A DNA stretch of 64,000 bases from sequence record PX068455.1. One strand, 5' to 3'. A program made the translations under genes and the position numbers. Shown here one piece after another: positions 7,538 through 41,482 of the stretch. The DNA comes from a phage. A model generated the notes under the pieces. It had not been told where the DNA came from. It searched no databases and worked only from the letters and a program-made list of their open reading frames with translations. Each line of letters starts with the position of its first letter. Position 1 is the stretch's first letter.

Positions 7538-7601
7538 TCTATGTACCTCTTTTACAGTTCTGATCAACAATAAGGCGGCAAATATGCCGCCTGTTACCTG
7601 A

Positions 7602-7982
7602 TTAAAAATTATCGCCGTAAATCTTTCCGCTTTCTACCCATACCACCACGCGAGGCATACTATCCCACACGTCTTGTTTTAGATTGAGCGCGTGCAATTC
7701 TTCGGTGGTGCTCATACCGGGCACGGGCTGATTGTATACTGCAAAACGACCACCCGCATAATCATAGGCCAGGGTTAAATCACACTGGATCATCTTTTTG
7801 ATCATGGCATTAAGCATGGCGTTAGCCGCATACTGATCACGTTTTAAAGGCAACTCTTTGATTAGTTTGCGATAGTTTTCGATATGGTCGCACACTGTTT
7901 CACGCGGAAGATCTTTCATATCTTCACGGAATGTAACCAGGTTAAACATAACGGTGTCAATAGCCTTGGTAGTGGTTTTCAT
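7602..7982 (-). CDS. hypothetical protein (126 aa)
   Basis: ORF track; own promoter and leader hairpin. Confidence 0.5.
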   Translation of the reverse strand: MKTTTKAIDTVMFNLVTFREDMKDLPRETVCDHIENYRKLIKELPLKRDQYAANAMLNAMIKKMIQCDLTLAYDYAGGRFAVYNQPVPGMSTTEELHALNLKQDVWDSMPRVVVWVESGKIYGDNF

Positions 7983-35304: not shown

Positions 35305-36489
35305 TTAAGCTTTAGCCAAAATGGCGCTAAACTCTTCACCAAACTCTTTTACAATCTTCATCAGGTTTGGGTATGCTTTGATCAGCTGAGCAACGATCTT
35401 GTCACGACCTTTACCGATAAGCAAGGCATTTCCTAAGGCATTAGGTTTCATCATCGCCATAAAGACTGAAAATACAAAATCTCGGTTCTCGTCCTTGAAG
35501 TTTTCCCAAAGGAAATCGAGAAAGTTTGCCACACAGCTAACAAGATCTTCGTCGGAGATACTTGCATTTTCCATCATATTACGAATAGCGATGCAACCTT
35601 CAGATCCAAGAATCCACAAGATGTCTGGCTGTTTAGGACCTACGTATTCTTTGCAACCTCCTGCCATAATCCGACCGATTTCCGGTAAGTTGCGTTTCTT
35701 GGTGTGGTAAGTCCAGATCTCTACCGCTGCAGTGTGACCAATAGCACCTTGCAGAAGAACACGGGCCATAGCGTCAGAAATAATACCGCTGTCAAAATCG
35801 TGCAAGATATCAGATGCAGCAACCCAAGATCGCGGTGTGGCAAAAGATGGACAATTAATCTCAGCCATGGCCTCATAATTATCGATAGCTGATGGAACTC
35901 TTTTCAGATATCCAATTACAGAGGAGTGCACCCCATTAAGGAATGCGTAGTCCTCAATAAACACCTCTGCATTGCTTGTAACCTCTACAATGATAAAACG
36001 GTTAGCCAGAGGGGCTTCGAGCGCCGAAAGAACCGCACCATCTGTAGAACGGTTACCAGCAGCCACAAAAACAGACCCCTTAGGGAATGCATAAGTACCG
36101 CACTTGTGGTCAAGCATAATTTGCATTGCAACCTTTTGTAGGTAGTTATCTGCATGAGTGAGCTCATCCAGAAAGATAATTCCGCTCCAGTCAGGATCCG
36201 CAGGCCAAAATTCTGGAATTGCAAACACTGTACGTGTAGTTCCATCCGCTTCTACAGGGATAGGTAGCCCAGATAAGTCGGCAGGATCTTTATCTGACAG
36301 CCGCACGTCAACAAGGTTGTCATCTCGCTCACCGAACATATTATCAGCGATCTGCTTCATCACCTGGCTTTTACCTACACCCATTGGTCCCAAAATTAGG
36401 ACAGATCGGCTATGACGTTGGGCAAACTGAATAATAGCTGGCAACTCACGGACAGTGATTTGACCACTTTCGAATACGTTTCTTGACAT
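35305..36489 (-). CDS. AAA+ ATPase, MoxR-like (394 aa)
   Basis: Walker A GPMGVGKS; Walker B IIFLDELTHA; sensor-like AAGNRS. Confidence 0.75.
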   Translation of the reverse strand: MSRNVFESGQITVRELPAIIQFAQRHSRSVLILGPMGVGKSQVMKQIADNMFGERDDNLVDVRLSDKDPADLSGLPIPVEADGTTRTVFAIPEFWPADPDWSGIIFLDELTHADNYLQKVAMQIMLDHKCGTYAFPKGSVFVAAGNRSTDGAVLSALEAPLANRFIIVEVTSNAEVFIEDYAFLNGVHSSVIGYLKRVPSAIDNYEAMAEINCPSFATPRSWVAASDILHDFDSGIISDAMARVLLQGAIGHTAAVEIWTYHTKKRNLPEIGRIMAGGCKEYVGPKQPDILWILGSEGCIAIRNMMENASISDEDLVSCVANFLDFLWENFKDENRDFVFSVFMAMMKPNALGNALLIGKGRDKIVAQLIKAYPNLMKIVKEFGEEFSAILAKA

Positions 36490-36758
36490 TAGTAAAAGTC
36501 CTCTACTTGTGTGTAAGTGTTTTCAAAGTTTTCCAAAACAGATATCACATCGGATCTGTCAATATCATACGTGACTCTCCAGTTGTACGCAACCCTTTCT
36601 GCTGTTGCCTCTTCTGGCGCTAGTCGTCTGCTGGCATAAAAGAGTGTTGGAGTACACTTTCTTGCTTGCCCTCTAACTTTCCCATAATAATATCTGTGAA
36701 TATCTTTGTCAAAATTTAACTCTTTTTCTGCACGAAGTTCATATTGCTGGTATAACAT
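36489..36758 (-). CDS. hypothetical protein (89 aa)
   Basis: ORF track. Confidence 0.5.
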   Translation of the reverse strand: MLYQQYELRAEKELNFDKDIHRYYYGKVRGQARKCTPTLFYASRRLAPEEATAERVAYNWRVTYDIDRSDVISVLENFENTYTQVEDFY

Positions 36759-36802
36759 CTCTACTACTCCTTAAGCAGCATCCTTGCCGCCATTCCTGCC
36801 CA

Positions 36803-37183
36803 CTAAAATGCAGTCCGAATCCAGACAAGGTTCTTATCTGCCCAATCATAGAGGCAAGTCATTGCACTATTGAATTGCTCACACGGAGGATAATCTTCTT
36901 CCATCTGACGCATAGCAGAGCCTTGTGGGTAAAGCTCCCGTGCTGCAAACCACGCGTCGTAGTCATCAACGGTGTCGAAGTAGTATACAACATCCTCCAA
37001 CTCAGGATCGAACTTTGAACTATCAGGATCCAGTTGTTCAGGGAACTTGGAGCGTAACTTGCCAGCCACAATACTTGCCAACTCGCTAACATGCTTATTG
37101 TCCCACTCCATTAGCTTCCCGTCTTCAGTGATGCGTCCTAACCACTGATCATGAAGGTCAACTGTTGTCTTCCACCGGGCCAT
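36803..37183 (-). CDS. hypothetical protein (126 aa)
   Basis: ORF track. Confidence 0.5.
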   Translation of the reverse strand: MARWKTTVDLHDQWLGRITEDGKLMEWDNKHVSELASIVAGKLRSKFPEQLDPDSSKFDPELEDVVYYFDTVDDYDAWFAARELYPQGSAMRQMEEDYPPCEQFNSAMTCLYDWADKNLVWIRTAF

Positions 37184-37185
37184 TA

Positions 37186-37443
37186 TCAGTCCACCTCTTC
37201 TTCTCGTTGTAGTTCAAGATACCCGTAGGTCTGGACATCTTCAAGGGTGTGGAACTCCCCATCTGCCGCTAATGCACGAACAACTTGGCACAAAACCTTA
37301 TGAGGAACTTCATCCAGACCAAGATTCAGTGCAGGGAACACCTTATCTAAGTCAACAAAATAAATGAACTGTAGCTCACCAGCTTCAAAAGGTGTATCTT
37401 CAATAAACATCTTCTCGGCATTAGTCAAGATCTGCACTTTCAT
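37186..37443 (-). CDS. hypothetical protein (85 aa)
   Basis: ORF track. Confidence 0.5.
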   Translation of the reverse strand: MKVQILTNAEKMFIEDTPFEAGELQFIYFVDLDKVFPALNLGLDEVPHKVLCQVVRALAADGEFHTLEDVQTYGYLELQREEEVD

Positions 37444-37799
37444 TATTCTACCTCCTCTTCTTTTTCTTCGGCATTAGTTTCATGGCTACCCCACTCTGGA
37501 GTTTCCACCTCGATAGTAAACTCACGCACTACACGGTAATTGCCCATGAAGCGCTCCACTTCGTCAAGGCTTATGGAGAGGCCATTGGCAACCAGGTCTG
37601 CAGCACCCTCTTCTACCAGGTAGTCCAGATTGGCTTCCAGAGCTTCAGGTTCAAACCCTGTCAATGCAATCAGATAACCTTTCCCTTCATCAGGGAGGAC
37701 AATACATCCCAACTGATTTTCTTTAAAAAGGCAGTGACCATCATTATTGATTGGGTGTTCATTGCAGTAAATAGCTGCACGATAAGTAACTTTAGACAT
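37443..37799 (-). CDS. hypothetical protein (118 aa)
   Basis: ORF 37443..37820 trimmed to ATG with SD AGGAGA. Confidence 0.5.
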   Translation of the reverse strand: MSKVTYRAAIYCNEHPINNDGHCLFKENQLGCIVLPDEGKGYLIALTGFEPEALEANLDYLVEEGAADLVANGLSISLDEVERFMGNYRVVREFTIEVETPEWGSHETNAEEKEEEVE

Positions 37800-37812
37800 C
37801 GGCAAGGTCTCC

Positions 37813-38091
37813 TTAGGCAATTGTCATTTTACATTCTTGAAATTTTAACACAAGACGGTGATTGTGTCTAGTGTCTAAAAAGATTTTTTCAACCATCAGG
37901 CACACGGTATAACCGTCCATCTTGTTGACAACAAAATCTCCAGGGTAAGGGAGAGTGTCCCCTGGGCTGGGAAAGCATAACCCGCTCAGAAAGGCATCAT
38001 CGGTGGTGGACTTAATGGATTTCCACACACTATCTGCCTGAACATTCTCACCAACATAATATACACTACCACATGACTTCATCATAGTCAA
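37813..38091 (-). CDS. hypothetical protein (92 aa)
   Basis: ORF track. Confidence 0.5.
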   Translation of the reverse strand: MTMMKSCGSVYYVGENVQADSVWKSIKSTTDDAFLSGLCFPSPGDTLPYPGDFVVNKMDGYTVCLMVEKIFLDTRHNHRLVLKFQECKMTIA

Positions 38092-38987
38092 ATCTCCGCG
38101 TAAATTAAACTGGAATCAGTATACTTCTTTAATGGGTAAATATCCTGTCCATAGATGCAATCATTAAACACCTCATCTACCCAAAGGCTACGCTTATATC
38201 CCATCATTTCTAAAACACTCATCTCTTCTTCGGTAAACTTATCACCACTCTTGCAAGATGTCAATACCTCATTTTGAACTCTTGCTACCTCGAATCGGTT
38301 ATTGGCAATATCGCTATTGGCGATCAAATACTCACCTAGAGGGTGTGCGGCATTAAAGATGCACAGTGGACGGCTGACGTAATAGTCTCCGGGTGTATAA
38401 AAATTGTTGAGGTCTTTCACTAGAACATTCTTATCAGTCACTTCATTTATAACATCATGCATATCGCACATCTTTATATGTTTGAGGATTCCATCTCCCA
38501 TCACAAAATAAAAACTTGCTGAGACACTTTCGGCATAGATCTTACTAGATCCGTTGTAGTTGTATTTTACTCGGATGCTAACGGGGGTTTTTCCTGTCGC
38601 GTTAGCCATCATCCAAAGAAATGGCAGCTCATACTTCTCCTCTGAGGAAACAAAAGGTGAGGTAGCCAGAGATCGAAAACCTCCAGAGAAGTTGAAAGTT
38701 ACAGAACCGCTCCGGCGGTATGATACCGCGTATTCTACTTTTATATCGACGTACCCATTGGAATAGGTGTGTCCTTCATTATCTAAATATGTCCACTTAT
38801 CAGACCCAGATACCAATCTACGCTCAATAACCTTCATCACTACAGGAATTAGTGGGTTGGTACAAACCGCTTTTGAAGTAGCTTTATCATCTAAAGCCTC
38901 GTAAATTGCAGAAAGGATGTCCCCAGCTGAAAGATTGGTTGTTATGTCCTGTTTCCACCGCGTACTAAAACTGTTAAGATTTGCCAT
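38088..38987 (-). CDS. hypothetical protein (299 aa); first gene of minus operon at divergent junction
   Basis: ORF track; TTGACT-N17-TATAGT promoter upstream. Confidence 0.55.
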   Translation of the reverse strand: MANLNSFSTRWKQDITTNLSAGDILSAIYEALDDKATSKAVCTNPLIPVVMKVIERRLVSGSDKWTYLDNEGHTYSNGYVDIKVEYAVSYRRSGSVTFNFSGGFRSLATSPFVSSEEKYELPFLWMMANATGKTPVSIRVKYNYNGSSKIYAESVSASFYFVMGDGILKHIKMCDMHDVINEVTDKNVLVKDLNNFYTPGDYYVSRPLCIFNAAHPLGEYLIANSDIANNRFEVARVQNEVLTSCKSGDKFTEEEMSVLEMMGYKRSLWVDEVFNDCIYGQDIYPLKKYTDSSLIYAEI

Positions 38988-39027
38988 AAGTAAGTGCTCC
39001 TATGTTAGTTTTCTTTCGAATGGGTGC

Positions 39028-39056
39028 ACTATATTGTGGAGTTAGAGTAAAGTCAA
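39028..39056 (-). promoter_or_regulatory. sigma70-like promoter TTGACT-N17-TATAGT (divergent, minus)
   Basis: Read on minus strand upstream of the 38987 start. Confidence 0.5.
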
Positions 39057-39069
39057 CACGTTTTTGATG

Positions 39070-39098
39070 TTGACATCTGTTGAGACAATTGATACGAT
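39070..39098 (+). promoter_or_regulatory. sigma70-like promoter TTGACA-N17-TACGAT (divergent, plus)
   Basis: Read on plus strand upstream of the HNH gene. Confidence 0.45.
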
Positions 39099-39129
39099 TT
39101 CTTCACTTACAGAGCACGAGAGACGACGC

Positions 39130-39609
39130 ATGAATCTTGAAAAATATTATACACCAGAAGAGTTAGAGCGCTTGCTCAAAAAATATAGACGCAAACAGAA
39201 TAACGCACGGAAACGAGATATAGAGTTCGACCTGTCATGGGAAGAATACCTCCTATTTGGTAAAAAACTTTTAGGAGATGGAGTATGCGACTATACCCTT
39301 ATACCTTTTGACATGCACACAGATGAAAACGGGCTGGGGAATCCTTTCTACCCATCTTTGGAGCGTATAGATGATGAAGGTCCTTACGCAATTGACAATT
39401 GTTGTGTGGTAGGGTTGAGGTGCAATGCTCTGAAAGACTGTCTGGTAGATAAAAAGACTGCAATCCTGATTAAAGACAAAACTGATCGAAAAATTGTCCA
39501 GCAGATGATGCTCCACCTGAGTGAAGAGCGTATGGAGAAGTTGAAAGGTGATTATACTTTTGAAGATTTCATCTTGCAATACGGGACAGAAGAAGACAGA
39601 AGAAATTGA
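39130..39609 (+). CDS. HNH-family endonuclease-like protein (homing-endonuclease-like; 159 aa)
   Basis: ERIDDEGPYAIDNCCVVGLRCNALK resembles HNH_3-type motif; ORF 39064..39609 trimmed to first ATG downstream of promoter. Confidence 0.45.
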   Translation: MNLEKYYTPEELERLLKKYRRKQNNARKRDIEFDLSWEEYLLFGKKLLGDGVCDYTLIPFDMHTDENGLGNPFYPSLERIDDEGPYAIDNCCVVGLRCNALKDCLVDKKTAILIKDKTDRKIVQQMMLHLSEERMEKLKGDYTFEDFILQYGTEEDRRN

Positions 39610-39988
39610 AGAACAGACATCTGAAGAGGAAAAAGAGCCTCAGGTGGTTGAAGAGGAGATTGCAGAAGAGGTTCCTGCACTGCCTGATGATGTTGAGATT
39701 GCTAAGGCTTACACTTTCTATTGTCAAACGTTCTACGATGCAGGTATGAAAGTTGACCTGTCGTTCAGCCAATTTAAGAGTTCGTATATTCGCAAATGCT
39801 GTGCTTTAACTGGTGAACGTCTCGGAGCTGGACTTAAACCACTGTTGGTGACCGACTGGAATAAAGGTTTCACTAAAGGAAACTTTATGGTAGTATCTCC
39901 AATTATGGAGAAAGCTATGACAGATCTTATGAAGACCACCCGCATGACAATGACCGAGTTGGCAGGTATTTTCAAACACGTTAAATAA
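39548..39988 (+). CDS. hypothetical protein, acidic N-terminus; start uncertain
   Basis: ORF-track coordinates overlap HNH gene by 60 nt; true start probably downstream (GTG ~39653 or ATG ~39746). Confidence 0.35.
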   Translation: MIILLKISSCNTGQKKTEEIEEQTSEEEKEPQVVEEEIAEEVPALPDDVEIAKAYTFYCQTFYDAGMKVDLSFSQFKSSYIRKCCALTGERLGAGLKPLLVTDWNKGFTKGNFMVVSPIMEKAMTDLMKTTRMTMTELAGIFKHVK

Positions 39989-40021
39989 TGACAGGGGCCA
40001 TTGGCCCCTTCTGGAGTTTTA

Positions 40022-41482
40022 ATGGATAGCAGAAGTTCAGAAATCATTGCCTCACAGAAAGATGATGCCCTGAGAATGTTGCAGGCTGCACGTATGTATC
40101 TCCTTGAAAAGCTGCCGTTTTATGGCACACTGCTGTCAGGATTGCAGTTCGTAGAAAACCACACATGGTGCTCCACCATGGCAACCGACCATAAACGCAT
40201 CTATTACAGCCCTGAGTTCATTATGGGATTGGCTGATGAACGCAAGGTTATTCTTAAGGCTTCTCTAACTGACGAACAGTTTGAGATGGCTGAGGTTTTC
40301 TATTCCCTCAAATCTGTGAAAGAGGTGGCTTTTCTTCTGTCACACGAGGTGGGGCATATTATCTGTGATCACCTGGTCCGTGGTAAAAGCTTCGAGCCGG
40401 AACTGTTTAATATTGCTTGTGATCATGTTATCAACACAGGTCTTGTGGTTGACTTTAGCAAGCCTCCCTGTGTTTTCTTCCCGAAGGGGAAAAGCACTAC
40501 GTTCGTGAAAGGTAAGCCTTTTGGTTTCTTAGCCAGCTGCTACTGCGACATGAGGTTTCATGGATGGATTGCTGAGAACGTCTATGCGGTTCTTGATAAG
40601 CAAAGAGATCAGAATAACGGTAAAAGTAAGAGCGGTAAAGGTGAGAACTCTCAAGGGGATAAGCGACAAACCGATGATCACATGAGTGGGAACGGTGGCA
40701 CCAGCGATGATCTTGGAAAGGCTATGGGGTATGATCAGCCACAACCTGTAATCAGCCAATCTGATAAAGATCAGGCCATGCAAGACTCTGGTGACATGCT
40801 GGAAGCAGCAATGCAAGCTTCCGGAGGTCGTTGCCCCGAGGCGGTGCGTGAGTTTGTCAAGAACAGAGGTAAGCCTGTAATCAACTATATAGACATCATT
40901 AAGCAACGCATGTTGTCTAAACGAAAGGCCGAACTGACCTACAGAAAACCTGGTCGCCGATCTGGGTCTTTGACCAGCACAATGCGAAAAGTTGGGGCTA
41001 TAAACAAGAACCAGCACGTTATTGTTCCTGGTCGTAATCCGGAAAACACCATAGATATTGTGGTAGCTTTAGACGTTTCTGGCTCGATATCTCAAAGAAC
41101 TTTAAAGAAAATGTTCAATGAAATCACCGGATTGTGCAATCTGTATAAAGAGTTTAAGGTTACAATGTTCTGTTGGTCAACTGAAGTCGGAGAGGTTAAA
41201 GTATATACTCGCGGCAACATAGACGAAATGATCAACTATGAGGTCCACTCAACATGGGGCACAACAGCTGCTTGCGTGTTCGAGTATCTGGATGCCAACA
41301 TACCAAATGCAAAAGATGTCATCGTCCTGACCGACCTATACTTTGAGCATAACTTTGAACAAAAGGCTGTTGACAACAAGTGGAAAAAGTACGATACTTT
41401 ATGGGTTCTCACCGAAGGGTATAATAAAAATTATATCCCTAGCTTTGGTAAAACTGTGGAATTAATCGAGTACGCTAAGTAA
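40022..41482 (+). CDS. metallopeptidase-like plus VWA domain protein (DUF2201-like; 486 aa)
   Basis: HExxH motif LSHEVGHIICDH; MIDAS motif VVALDVSGSIS; ATG at residue 8 of ORF 40001..41482. Confidence 0.7.
   Translation: MDSRSSEIIASQKDDALRMLQAARMYLLEKLPFYGTLLSGLQFVENHTWCSTMATDHKRIYYSPEFIMGLADERKVILKASLTDEQFEMAEVFYSLKSVKEVAFLLSHEVGHIICDHLVRGKSFEPELFNIACDHVINTGLVVDFSKPPCVFFPKGKSTTFVKGKPFGFLASCYCDMRFHGWIAENVYAVLDKQRDQNNGKSKSGKGENSQGDKRQTDDHMSGNGGTSDDLGKAMGYDQPQPVISQSDKDQAMQDSGDMLEAAMQASGGRCPEAVREFVKNRGKPVINYIDIIKQRMLSKRKAELTYRKPGRRSGSLTSTMRKVGAINKNQHVIVPGRNPENTIDIVVALDVSGSISQRTLKKMFNEITGLCNLYKEFKVTMFCWSTEVGEVKVYTRGNIDEMINYEVHSTWGTTAACVFEYLDANIPNAKDVIVLTDLYFEHNFEQKAVDNKWKKYDTLWVLTEGYNKNYIPSFGKTVELIEYAK

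Follow-up and report, generated by a model that had tools for sequence, protein, structure and literature searches.

The MoxR-type AAA+ ATPase and the metallopeptidase–VWA protein encoded on opposite strands of this phage DNA probably make up a single machine, namely a MoxR–VWA chaperone/adaptor pair of the phage type exemplified by N4 gp24/gp25. The window (the whole stretch of 64,000 nucleotides analyzed) comes from a Vequintavirus (rV5-like) genome and is 100% identical to Escherichia phage ECP2309 except for one 118-bp deletion. Both ORFs were found where the initial annotation had placed them (Table 1), and their motifs are invariant or nearly so across aligned homologues. The annotated spacing of ~3.5 kb across a divergent promoter junction corresponds to a gap of 3,532 bp holding seven or eight unrelated ORFs, with the strand switch in a 76-bp intergenic region (38988..39063) and with promoters that are consensus matches.

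Table 1. Features of the region carrying the ATPase and VWA-peptidase genes (window coordinates).
Feature	Position	Strand	Remarks
MoxR-type (CbbQ/NorQ-like) AAA+ ATPase	35305..36489	-	394 aa; rV5 ORF4; related to N4 gp24-like proteins
ORF5	36489..36758	-	89 aa; stop overlaps ATPase start (TAATG)
Sigma70-like promoter match, TTGACA-17-TATTAT	36684..36712	-	11/12; inside ORF5, ~195 bp upstream of ATPase start; annotated as P4 in rV5
Divergent junction, back-to-back sigma70-like promoter matches	38988..39098	.	consensus matches only
GC-rich hairpin, GGGGCC-ATT-GGCCCC	39991..40011	+	between Srd-like gene stop and VWA-peptidase Shine-Dalgarno
VWA-peptidase: zincin-like metallopeptidase domain fused to VWA/MIDAS	40022..41482	+	486 aa; rV5 ORF12; related to N4 gp25-like proteins

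The ATPase bears Walker A (GPMGVGKS) and Walker B (IIFLDE) motifs and matches phrog_1297 at 2e-110. Residues G37/G39/K40/S41 (Walker A), D108/E109 (Walker B), N146/R147, R164 (PLANRF) and R220 (ATPRSW) are invariant in aligned homologues, and Walker B and the NRF and TPR arginines were present in 104/104 ATPase ORFs. The MoxR-type label of the initial annotation did not hold for the window protein's own Pfam score, which fell below the AAA_5 and AAA_3 cut-offs (16.7 bits versus 22), but three other lines of evidence favor it: homologues at 29–35% identity scored above these cut-offs, a search of the PDB with the family profile gave midasin AAA modules as the first match, and the top 17 Foldseek matches to the AF2 model (pLDDT 85, pTM 0.81) were all NorQ (NorQD complexes) and CbbQ2 (E 4e-8 to 1e-7; TM-score 0.62–0.65 on the target). 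Together, these results support membership of the MoxR group. In the model, a beta-hairpin (75–90) follows helix 2, and a short hairpin (129–134) precedes strand 4.

The partner combines a zincin-like domain (~aa 1–330, with a disordered insert) and a compact VWA/MIDAS domain (~aa 343–486). The DUF2201-type architecture proposed from its HExxH and MIDAS motifs was borne out by Pfam profiles far above threshold, DUF2201_N (98.7 bits, cut-off 23.2; 5.6e-28) and DUF2201 (43.7 bits, cut-off 26.4; 3.5e-11). In aligned homologues, H108/E109/H112/H117 around the HEVGH motif (H108-E109-x-x-H112) are nearly invariant, and D351/S353/S355/T414/D438 of the MIDAS, which includes LDVSGS (D351-x-S353-x-S355), are invariant; DxSxS was found in 81/81 partner ORFs. 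The AF2 model (pLDDT 78.7) is disordered at 200–229 and 284–309. Fold searches recovered the VWA fold, with the NorD VWA domain among the matches, and VWA_CoxE matched 12/20 family members. Two fold searches, in which VWA matches were dominant, gave no solved peptidase for the N-terminal domain; the label "peptidase" is accordingly based on the Pfam family, on conservation of HExxH and on weak Peptidase_M48 and SprT-like matches to the HExxH region, the latter in a few family members. A GGAG Shine-Dalgarno sequence 6 nt upstream favors the ATG at 40022 over a TTG at 40001 as the start codon.

The catalytic Glu is absent, with the MIDAS retained, from eight Campylobacterota MAG relatives and two alignment members, indicating that proteolysis is not universal in this family. 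The Campylobacterota proteins keep three His (AHTLLHILLKH), which would suit a metal site without catalysis, and the structurally nearest characterized pairs (NorQD and CbbQO, together with CoxE-like VWA matches) insert metals or reactivate enzymes. Both points would fit a classical MoxR–VWA chaperone for metal insertion or cofactor maturation of a phage or host metalloenzyme, in which HExxH…H is a metal-binding or delivery site and not a protease. We nevertheless consider this reading quite improbable, because every phage-derived partner ORF except the rV5 deposit carries the full HExxH with its Glu, a hydrolytic zincin signature, and no potential client metalloenzyme accompanies the pair consistently from one phage group to the next.

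Linkage of the two genes proved to be the rule. We collected 80 viral contigs with a homologous ATPase, 71 of which were informative in that sequence was present downstream of the ATPase. A DUF2201 gene lay nearby in 70 of these 71, directly downstream on the same strand in 68. The co-occurrence on which the initial annotation had staked the pairing is thus near-complete, and adjacency is the normal state. In Cronobacter CR9, Aeromonas 2L372X, Escherichia TH47, Vibrio D275 and Pectobacterium phiA41 they lie next to each other or almost so, and this pairing is seen in N4-like, Rak2-like jumbo and CR9-like phages alike. Matching phage records were essentially single-copy (ATPase, 787 places in 786 records; VWA protein, 572 in 572). 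Cellular operons, named in the initial annotation as the usual home of the pair, do contain it: three Firmicutes-type chromosomal contigs have adjacent genes within a helicase–ATPase–DUF2201 cluster. However, a search of 185,579 species genomes with subfamily-specific patterns detected the ATPase subfamily in only 21 contigs, all of them from MAGs; given this rarity and the match to N4 gp24/gp25 and to a published jumbo-phage pair, the module belongs to phages at least as much as to cells.

The split arrangement is limited to the rV5, PVP-SE1 and Hena1-like lineages, where it is kept down to ~43% protein identity; the divergent order is retained at 43–53%, for example in KP12, SEW_6S, Hena1 and one further contig (L009). 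The split pair is thus one lineage's gene order and not a new kind of system. It is highly unlikely that the two genes, once separated by rearrangement, took independent roles in rV5-like phages. Their opposite strands, their distance and the intervening ORFs would agree with such a divergence, as would ATPases without a nearby partner in some MAG contigs and one viral contig (L041). By contrast, both genes are intact and single-copy in ~116 Vequintavirus records as well as in those split lineages that are more distant, the genome has no other MoxR or VWA partner for either gene, every motif needed for joint action is conserved, and the two genes lie on either side of a single divergent promoter-like junction. 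In the comparison of ECP2309 with rV5, ~39/44 substitutions before the frameshift are at third codon positions, indicating purifying selection.

The nearest solved structures to the ATPase model, NorQ and CbbQ, belong to the CbbQ/GvpN/NorQ subgroup of MoxR, whose members NorQ/NorD and CbbQ/CbbO each include a VWA partner. Like NorQ and CbbQ, the phage ATPase is a single AAA+ module with a helix-2 insert, and its relatives are likewise linked to their partner gene; like NorD and CbbO, the phage partner consists of an N-terminal domain, a disordered linker and a C-terminal VWA with a complete MIDAS. The phage ATPase differs in an extra helical C-terminal region of ~130 aa, so that only ~270 of 394 residues align, and the phage partner in its zincin-like HExxH domain and compact VWA (~140 aa); sequence identity is only 16–23%. 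RavA/ViaA of E. coli, in which RavA carries a LARA domain and has LdcI as a binding partner, and eukaryotic midasin (Rea1/Mdn1), with six AAA modules and a MIDAS in one chain, both differ from the phage pair in having no peptidase domain.

N4 gp24 (ATPase) and gp25 (vWFA) of the Schitoviridae, core genes of N4-like phages (PMC4193335), are homologues of the phage pair described here and share its two-protein architecture. The window proteins matched many Schitoviridae by tblastn (E 1e-10 to 1e-21; some annotated "N4 gp24-like"), although identity to gp24/gp25 is only ~22–30% and the N4-like pair lies on one strand, adjacent or ~1 kb apart. In the passages on this pair in Iyer et al. (2021; Viruses 13:63, PMC7824862), a MoxR–vWA pair with an N-terminal metallopeptidase, the same architecture as in the window, is described for group 2.2 (Rak2/121Q-like) jumbo phages; 121Q, PBECO4, CBB and TH47 were matched by both window proteins. 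Those passages deal with jumbo phages, for which they suggest a part in virion assembly; neither the rV5-like phages (137 kb) nor the split gene order comes up in them. rV5 ORF4 is deposited as "MoxR ATPase". Although the pair is real and many large lytic phages have it, it is not new, having been annotated and described before.

Our literature search found no experimental paper on a phage MoxR–VWA pair, and we took the cryo-EM and biochemistry of NorQ/NorD as a mechanistic template (PMC13036017, PMC9976466). By analogy with NorQ/NorD and CbbQ/CbbO, the ATPase would form a hexameric AAA+ ring on which a single partner copy docks through its VWA domain, while the MIDAS would hold a divalent cation and bind an acidic residue of the target protein. 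ATP hydrolysis might then pull or twist the adaptor together with its long stretches of disordered linker (~aa 195–245 and 284–309), and the remodeled target would be cut by the fused zincin-type domain.

The pair could instead be a virion-assembly chaperone with a maturation protease that folds or assembles structural proteins and trims them. The relevant passages of Iyer et al. propose this role for group 2.2 phages, on a model in which MoxR–vWA proteins are needed for tail development of Acidianus two-tailed virus (ATV) (PMC7824862). It is also favored by the large, complex virions of all pair-carrying phages and by a 578-kb jumbo contig in which the adjacent genes lie beside the proteostasis genes ClpS, Hsp20 and ClpP. 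Gene context makes this role rather unlikely: the pair lay inside a structural module in none of the loci inspected. In the window it is bordered by rIIA, a gene for an Srd-like anti-sigma protein and a group of small ORFs of early type; N4-like phages place it between RNA polymerase genes and helicase/DNA polymerase genes, and transcripts of N4 gp24 and gp25 are reported to belong to the middle class (PMC4193335); other viral contigs place it between genes for a 5'-3' exonuclease and thymidylate synthase; and the cellular relatives adjoin an SNF2-type helicase, not structural genes. Judged by this context, an early or middle role linked to DNA metabolism or host takeover is more likely for the chaperone/adaptor pair than one in virion assembly. 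As a functional analogy, Cdc48/p97 with Wss1/SPRTN, which removes DNA–protein crosslinks, also joins an AAA+ motor to a zincin protease. This likeness, drawn from the weak SprT-like matches and the SNF2-type helicase, is a lead and no classification, since the AAA+ clade differs, the whole systems are not homologous and no DNA-binding domain was identified in the phage pair.

At the junction, sigma70-like matches (10/12 each) lie at 39056..39028 (-) and 39070..39098 (+), the latter being promoter P11 of the rV5 record, and both -35 hexamers fall inside an inverted repeat with 8-bp arms (39052..39074). The sequence is compatible with these promoters without proving them, because promoter-like matches across the region were no commoner than in shuffled sequence (17 versus 13.3 ± 3.2). 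If they are used, both genes would belong to early-type sigma70-promoted units on either side of one junction, and the two proteins would be made together early in infection although their genes are not adjacent; this timing has the chance-level matches as its basis. The TAATG overlap makes translational coupling of ORF5 and the ATPase probable. Of the loci inspected, only those of Vequintavirus contained ORF5, which matches phrog_13164, labeled "ATPase", while the protein itself has no domain matches. The hairpin preceding the VWA-peptidase gene may act in attenuation or in mRNA stability.

In the window, the region 35000..41600 matches Escherichia phage ECP2309 (PP464953.1; Vequintavirinae, Vequintavirus) at 100% identity and the type phage rV5 at about 97%; at least 80% of this region is covered by 115 phage records. 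It encodes, as the initial annotation had described, one ORF with Walker A and B motifs and another with HExxH and DVSGS motifs. For the latter, the ATG at 40022 was favored over an upstream TTG, because GGAG is located 6 nt 5′ of this ATG. The spacing of about 3.5 kb proposed for the two ORFs was measured as 3,532 bp; they lie on opposite strands and flank a 76-bp intergenic region, in which sigma70-like matches are arranged back to back, one of which coincides with the P11 promoter of the rV5 annotation. All sigma70-like matches here, including a third one on the ATPase side, are consensus matches, the density of which is not above shuffled expectation. An inverted repeat in the divergent junction spans the -35-like hexamer of each of the two opposing promoter matches; it could be a shared operator.

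Coordinates of the ATPase and VWA-peptidase genes, neighboring features and related loci
Feature	Sequence	Coordinates	Strand	Remarks
ATPase ORF	window	35305..36489	-	394 aa; GPMGVGKS, IIFLDE
VWA-peptidase ORF	window	40022..41482	+	486 aa; HEVGH, LDVSGS
Third sigma70-like match	window	36712..36684	-	inside ORF5, just upstream of ATPase; rV5 promoter P4
Intergenic region	window	38988..39063		divergent junction
Inverted repeat	window	39052..39074		8-bp arms (GTCAACA…TGTTGAC); candidate operator
118-bp deletion	window	about 39596		between 39064..39609 and 39548..39988; equivalent to 7598-7715 of locus L001
E109G	rV5 deposit (L002, DQ832317.1)	8067		GAA to GGA; window codon 109
+1 T frameshift	rV5 deposit (L002, DQ832317.1)	about 8991		window codon 417
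Pair in jumbo-phage-like contig	L005	1592-8591		578-kb JGI contig
Firmicutes-type cluster	L007	3616-9239		independent contig, housekeeping genes flanking
Firmicutes-type cluster	L112	4537-10209		independent contig, housekeeping genes flanking
Firmicutes-type cluster	L114	4547-10245		independent contig, housekeeping genes flanking

Over 32-45 kb, the sole difference between the window and ECP2309 is a 118-bp deletion in a gene between the ATPase and VWA-peptidase genes, encoding a Srd-like anti-sigma or 'anti-termination' protein (rV5 ORF11). The deletion is bordered by the short direct repeat gacagaagaa, and shifts the frame so that the 347-aa gene is broken into two overlapping ORFs. The 118 bp are present in ECP2309 and every other matching phage record, and the deletion junction was found in no record of the phage collection.

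We analyzed the family membership of the ATPase using homologue profiles and structure, because its single-sequence matches in Pfam, NCBIfam, PADLOC, and the PDB (such as ClpB, ClpC, and p97) were sub-threshold and restricted to the P-loop region. Its own score against Pfam AAA_5 was 16.7 bits, below the cut-off of 22, and AAA_3 gave no match. By contrast, homologues of about 360 aa with ~34% identity (E about 1e-44; 29-35% range overall) have precomputed Pfam matches to both AAA_3 and AAA_5, and a cellular relative with 29% identity (E 5e-34), the ATPase of the Firmicutes-type contig L114, was above the gathering thresholds of both (35.1 for AAA_5 and 33.6 for AAA_3). When a profile of 24 homologues was searched against the PDB, midasin AAA modules were matched first (1.7e-10). 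Across 24 homologues, no variation was seen at the Walker residues G37, G39, K40, S41, D108, and E109, and Walker B was present together with two arginine motifs, PLANRF and ATPRSW, in all 104 ATPase ORFs. N146/R147, R164 (in PLANRF), and R220 (in ATPRSW), which are invariant across the aligned homologues, we take to be sensor 1, the arginine finger, and the sensor 2 arginine, respectively, by analogy with MoxR motifs. In the AlphaFold2 model (pLDDT 85, pTM 0.81), a predicted helix at residues 69-73 is followed by strands at 75-81 and 84-90, corresponding to a helix-2 insert β-hairpin, and a short predicted pre-sensor-1 hairpin at 129-134 precedes a strand at 138-145. Foldseek with this model placed NorQ, from NorQD complexes of 2026, and CbbQ2 at ranks 1-17, followed with lower TM-scores by ClpC, McrB, RuvBL, NtrC-like proteins, and dynein. 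Both NorQ and CbbQ2 are MoxR ATPases acting together with a VWA partner; about 130 helical C-terminal residues of the phage ATPase have no counterpart in them. Taken together, the homologues, profile search, and model structure support assignment of the ATPase to the MoxR/AAA_5 group. Thus, a MoxR-type ATPase, as initially claimed, is supported by motifs, homologue profiles, and structure, but not by its own AAA_5 and AAA_3 scores; its membership is transitive and structural, since its own score is sub-threshold while its homologues pass.

The HExxH-plus-VWA architecture of DUF2201 type that had been read from the second ORF was borne out by both Pfam domains, DUF2201_N (PF13203; 98.7 bits versus a cut-off of 23.2, E 5.6e-28) and DUF2201 (PF09967; 43.7 bits versus 26.4, E 3.5e-11), which follow each other in N-to-C order and were matched by all 20 aligned family members. 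In the N-terminal domain, H108, E109, H112, H117, and D134 are kept in at least 90% of aligned partner sequences, and N138 is invariant, which provides ligand candidates beyond the HExxH motif; HExxH is found in every phage-derived copy except that of the rV5 deposit. The HExxH was also matched weakly by Peptidase_M48 (9/20 members) and SprT-like (3/20) profiles. Given the Pfam family, the conserved HExxH, and these weak matches, we regard this domain as a putative peptidase. The MIDAS site on the VWA fold is complete, with D351, S353, S355, T414, and D438 invariant and DxSxS present in 81/81 partner ORFs. Of the 20 members, 12 matched VWA_CoxE, the family to which the partner of the MoxR ATPase CoxD belongs. 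The model of the VWA-peptidase (pLDDT 78.7) predicts a helical N-terminal domain and a compact C-terminal α/β domain, with disorder at residues 200-229 and 284-309, both of which are very variable in length among homologues. Among the matches listed, fold searches gave VWA matches only; a PDB profile search matched only the MIDAS strand of integrin I-domains, and a single-sequence PDB search gave no useful match. Substitutions in this gene between ECP2309 and rV5 fall overwhelmingly in third codon positions.

We next consider pairing of the two genes in viruses. A scan with the ATPase alignment found 80 viral loci, the flanks of which were searched with HMMs of both families; in 9 of them, the sequence stops no more than 200 bp from the ATPase gene, leaving 71 informative. 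This was the refuting test attached to the original claim of a pair, and both genes were present in 70 of these 71 loci. In 68, the ATPase gene is immediately followed by the DUF2201 gene in the same orientation, usually at a distance of no more than 150 bp. The exceptions were an rV5-like locus (L008) and a locus with 53% identity (L009), both with the divergent order of the window, and a locus (L041) in which a radical-SAM gene replaces DUF2201 downstream of the ATPase. With tblastn (E ≤ 1e-8), the ATPase was detected in 786 records, compared with 572 for the partner, essentially at one place each per record. We attribute the shortfall to search sensitivity, because Vibrio D275 and Pectobacterium phiA41 carry a DUF2201-type gene, adjoining the ATPase and 1.2 kb downstream of it, respectively, though of the matches listed, they are among those of the ATPase and not those of the partner. 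The pair occurs in N4-like phages (Schitoviridae), Rak2/121Q-like and PA5oct-like jumbo phages, Aeromonas 2L372X, Bacillus phage G, and the wider rV5-like group. In the jumbo-phage-like contig L005, it lies among Hsp20, ClpS, ClpP protease, and T4-type RNA ligase genes, a proteostasis neighborhood absent from the other loci.

Regarding the split order, the pair is adjacent on one strand in CR9-type phages (35% identity), whereas in Vequintavirus, the KP12 and SEW_6S type (about 50-53%), and Erwinia Hena1 (43%) it is divergent and 2.0-3.9 kb apart. Both genes are retained in every split genome. This distribution indicates that the split is an old rearrangement of one lineage only, kept as the proteins diverged; it looks like a lineage-specific order without evident functional consequence. 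The rV5 deposit has two lesions in the partner gene: E109G in HExxH, and a frameshift by which the C-terminal ~70 residues, including part of the MIDAS site, are lost. Neither lesion is shared by any of about 116 other Vequintavirus records. Either the 2006 deposit contains sequencing errors here, or laboratory stocks are able to lose the gene. We do not accept the lesions as evidence that the gene is dispensable, since they are private to that deposit and may be such errors.

In a search of 185,579 species genomes, subfamily-specific ATPase patterns matched only 21 contigs, all of them from MAGs and mostly Campylobacterota, with a DUF2201 gene on the same strand in 14 and adjacent in 13. Hence, the premise that the DUF2201 architecture partners MoxR ATPases in cells was correct, but the subfamily of the window is predominantly viral. 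In eight Campylobacterota partners (L089, L092, L093, L095, L097, L100, L101, and L108), the Glu of HExxH is replaced to give HTLLH; most read AHTLLHILLKH, with the histidines kept, and the MIDAS site is complete. These residues suggest that the Campylobacterota partner may be a pseudo-peptidase or a metal-binding-only domain. Several other MAG contigs (L090, L106) have an orphan ATPase beside peroxidase and cytochrome genes. A second, larger branch consists of Firmicutes-type chromosomal contigs with a three-gene cluster of a SNF2/ResIII-type helicase (about 1,100 aa; precomputed Pfam WH_1, DUF8437, and Helicase_dom), a MoxR-like ATPase (about 370 aa), and a DUF2201_N+DUF2201 protein, encoded in this order. 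This cluster corresponds to no PADLOC system.

The pair is a further member of a phage module already described. The 14 genes listed as the core of N4-like phages include N4 gp24 and gp25 (vWFA), which are described as middle transcripts (PMC4193335). rV5 ORF4 was already named 'MoxR ATPase' in the original record, and its partner appears in later records as 'putative metallopeptidase' or 'VWA-like domain-containing protein'. Literature searches yielded no experimental work on the phage pair, whether on essentiality, transcript timing, or interaction. MoxR–vWA ternary conflict systems have as third component VMAP, inactive STAND (iSTAND), FtsH, or β-propeller proteins, with effector domains (Kaur et al. 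2020); such a component is absent near either window gene. A known anti-phage defense system was also ruled out, as PADLOC left the VWA protein unmatched and gave only P-loop-level matches for the ATPase.

The best template for the phage pair is NorQ/NorD, in which one NorD binds per NorQ hexamer, the NorD VWA finger enters the NorQ pore, and the NorD C-terminus touches a ring loop; the NorD MIDAS site binds acidic residues of the client, and ATP hydrolysis remodels the NorD linker (PMC9976466, PMC13036017). Kahle et al. proposed such a VWA 'finger' entering the MoxR pore as general; the secondary-structure string of the VWA-peptidase model predicts no obvious long insertion. For the phage pair, the analysis shows the components and their gene linkage; from the NorQ/NorD analogy, we infer that the two proteins interact and that a target is proteolyzed: the ATPase ring would power the VWA-peptidase as an adaptor, the MIDAS site of which would catch a target protein that the zincin domain would then cut. 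Metal insertion, the classical task of MoxR–VWA pairs, may be performed instead, which suits those relatives that have kept the histidines and lost the Glu.

Gene context favors an early or middle role, tied to DNA metabolism or host takeover. The pair is accompanied by rIIA, the Srd-like anti-sigma gene, and small early-type ORFs in the window, by RNA polymerase, helicase, and DNA polymerase genes in N4-like phages, by exonuclease and thymidylate synthase genes in other contigs, and by the SNF2-type helicase in Firmicutes. Iyer et al. (PMC7824862) proposed a virion-assembly role with proteolytic processing for the MoxR–vWA pair; this would suit the jumbo contig with Hsp20, ClpS, and ClpP, but fits less well with gene contexts that point to an early or middle role. 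It is conceivable, albeit improbable in our estimation, that the pair uses ATP to remove and cut proteins lodged on nucleic acid (such as roadblocks, crosslinked proteins, or defense factors bound to phage DNA) in the manner of Cdc48–Wss1/SPRTN, and that large lytic phages share this machine with an SNF2-helicase–MoxR–DUF2201 operon of Firmicutes that had not been described before. This speculation is prompted by the linkage to a helicase gene in three cellular contigs, by the helicase, polymerase, exonuclease, and thymidylate synthase genes neighboring the phage pair, and by the weak SprT-like similarity at HExxH.

The pair belongs to the core genes of at least two large virulent phage groups, N4-like and rV5-like, and also occurs in Rak2-like jumbo phages. 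Several N4-like and rV5-like phages serve in phage therapy and biocontrol. Identification of the client would explain what a widespread and conserved phage function of early or middle type does, and would extend the MoxR–VWA mechanism, only just solved for NorQD, by a protease-coupled variant. As regards the window, the two separated genes merit annotation and study as one system.

Several database labels in this region require attention. phrog_1314, the family of the partner, is labeled 'HNH endonuclease', and many phage records in GenBank and RefSeq have taken over this name for the gene. No HNH family was among the Pfam matches at E ≤ 1 in any of the 20 members, so the label is a propagated annotation error, corrected here for the window to DUF2201_N+DUF2201. 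phrog_13164, which comprises the 89-aa ORF5, is labeled 'ATPase' but has no ATPase features; ORF5 was also ruled out as a third conserved component of the family, because, among the loci examined, it is found only in Vequintavirus. Finally, 16 records named as Campylobacter jejuni phages (e.g., MG065655.1 and MG065654.1) have about 97% identity to the window region, suggesting mislabeled hosts or contaminating coliphages.
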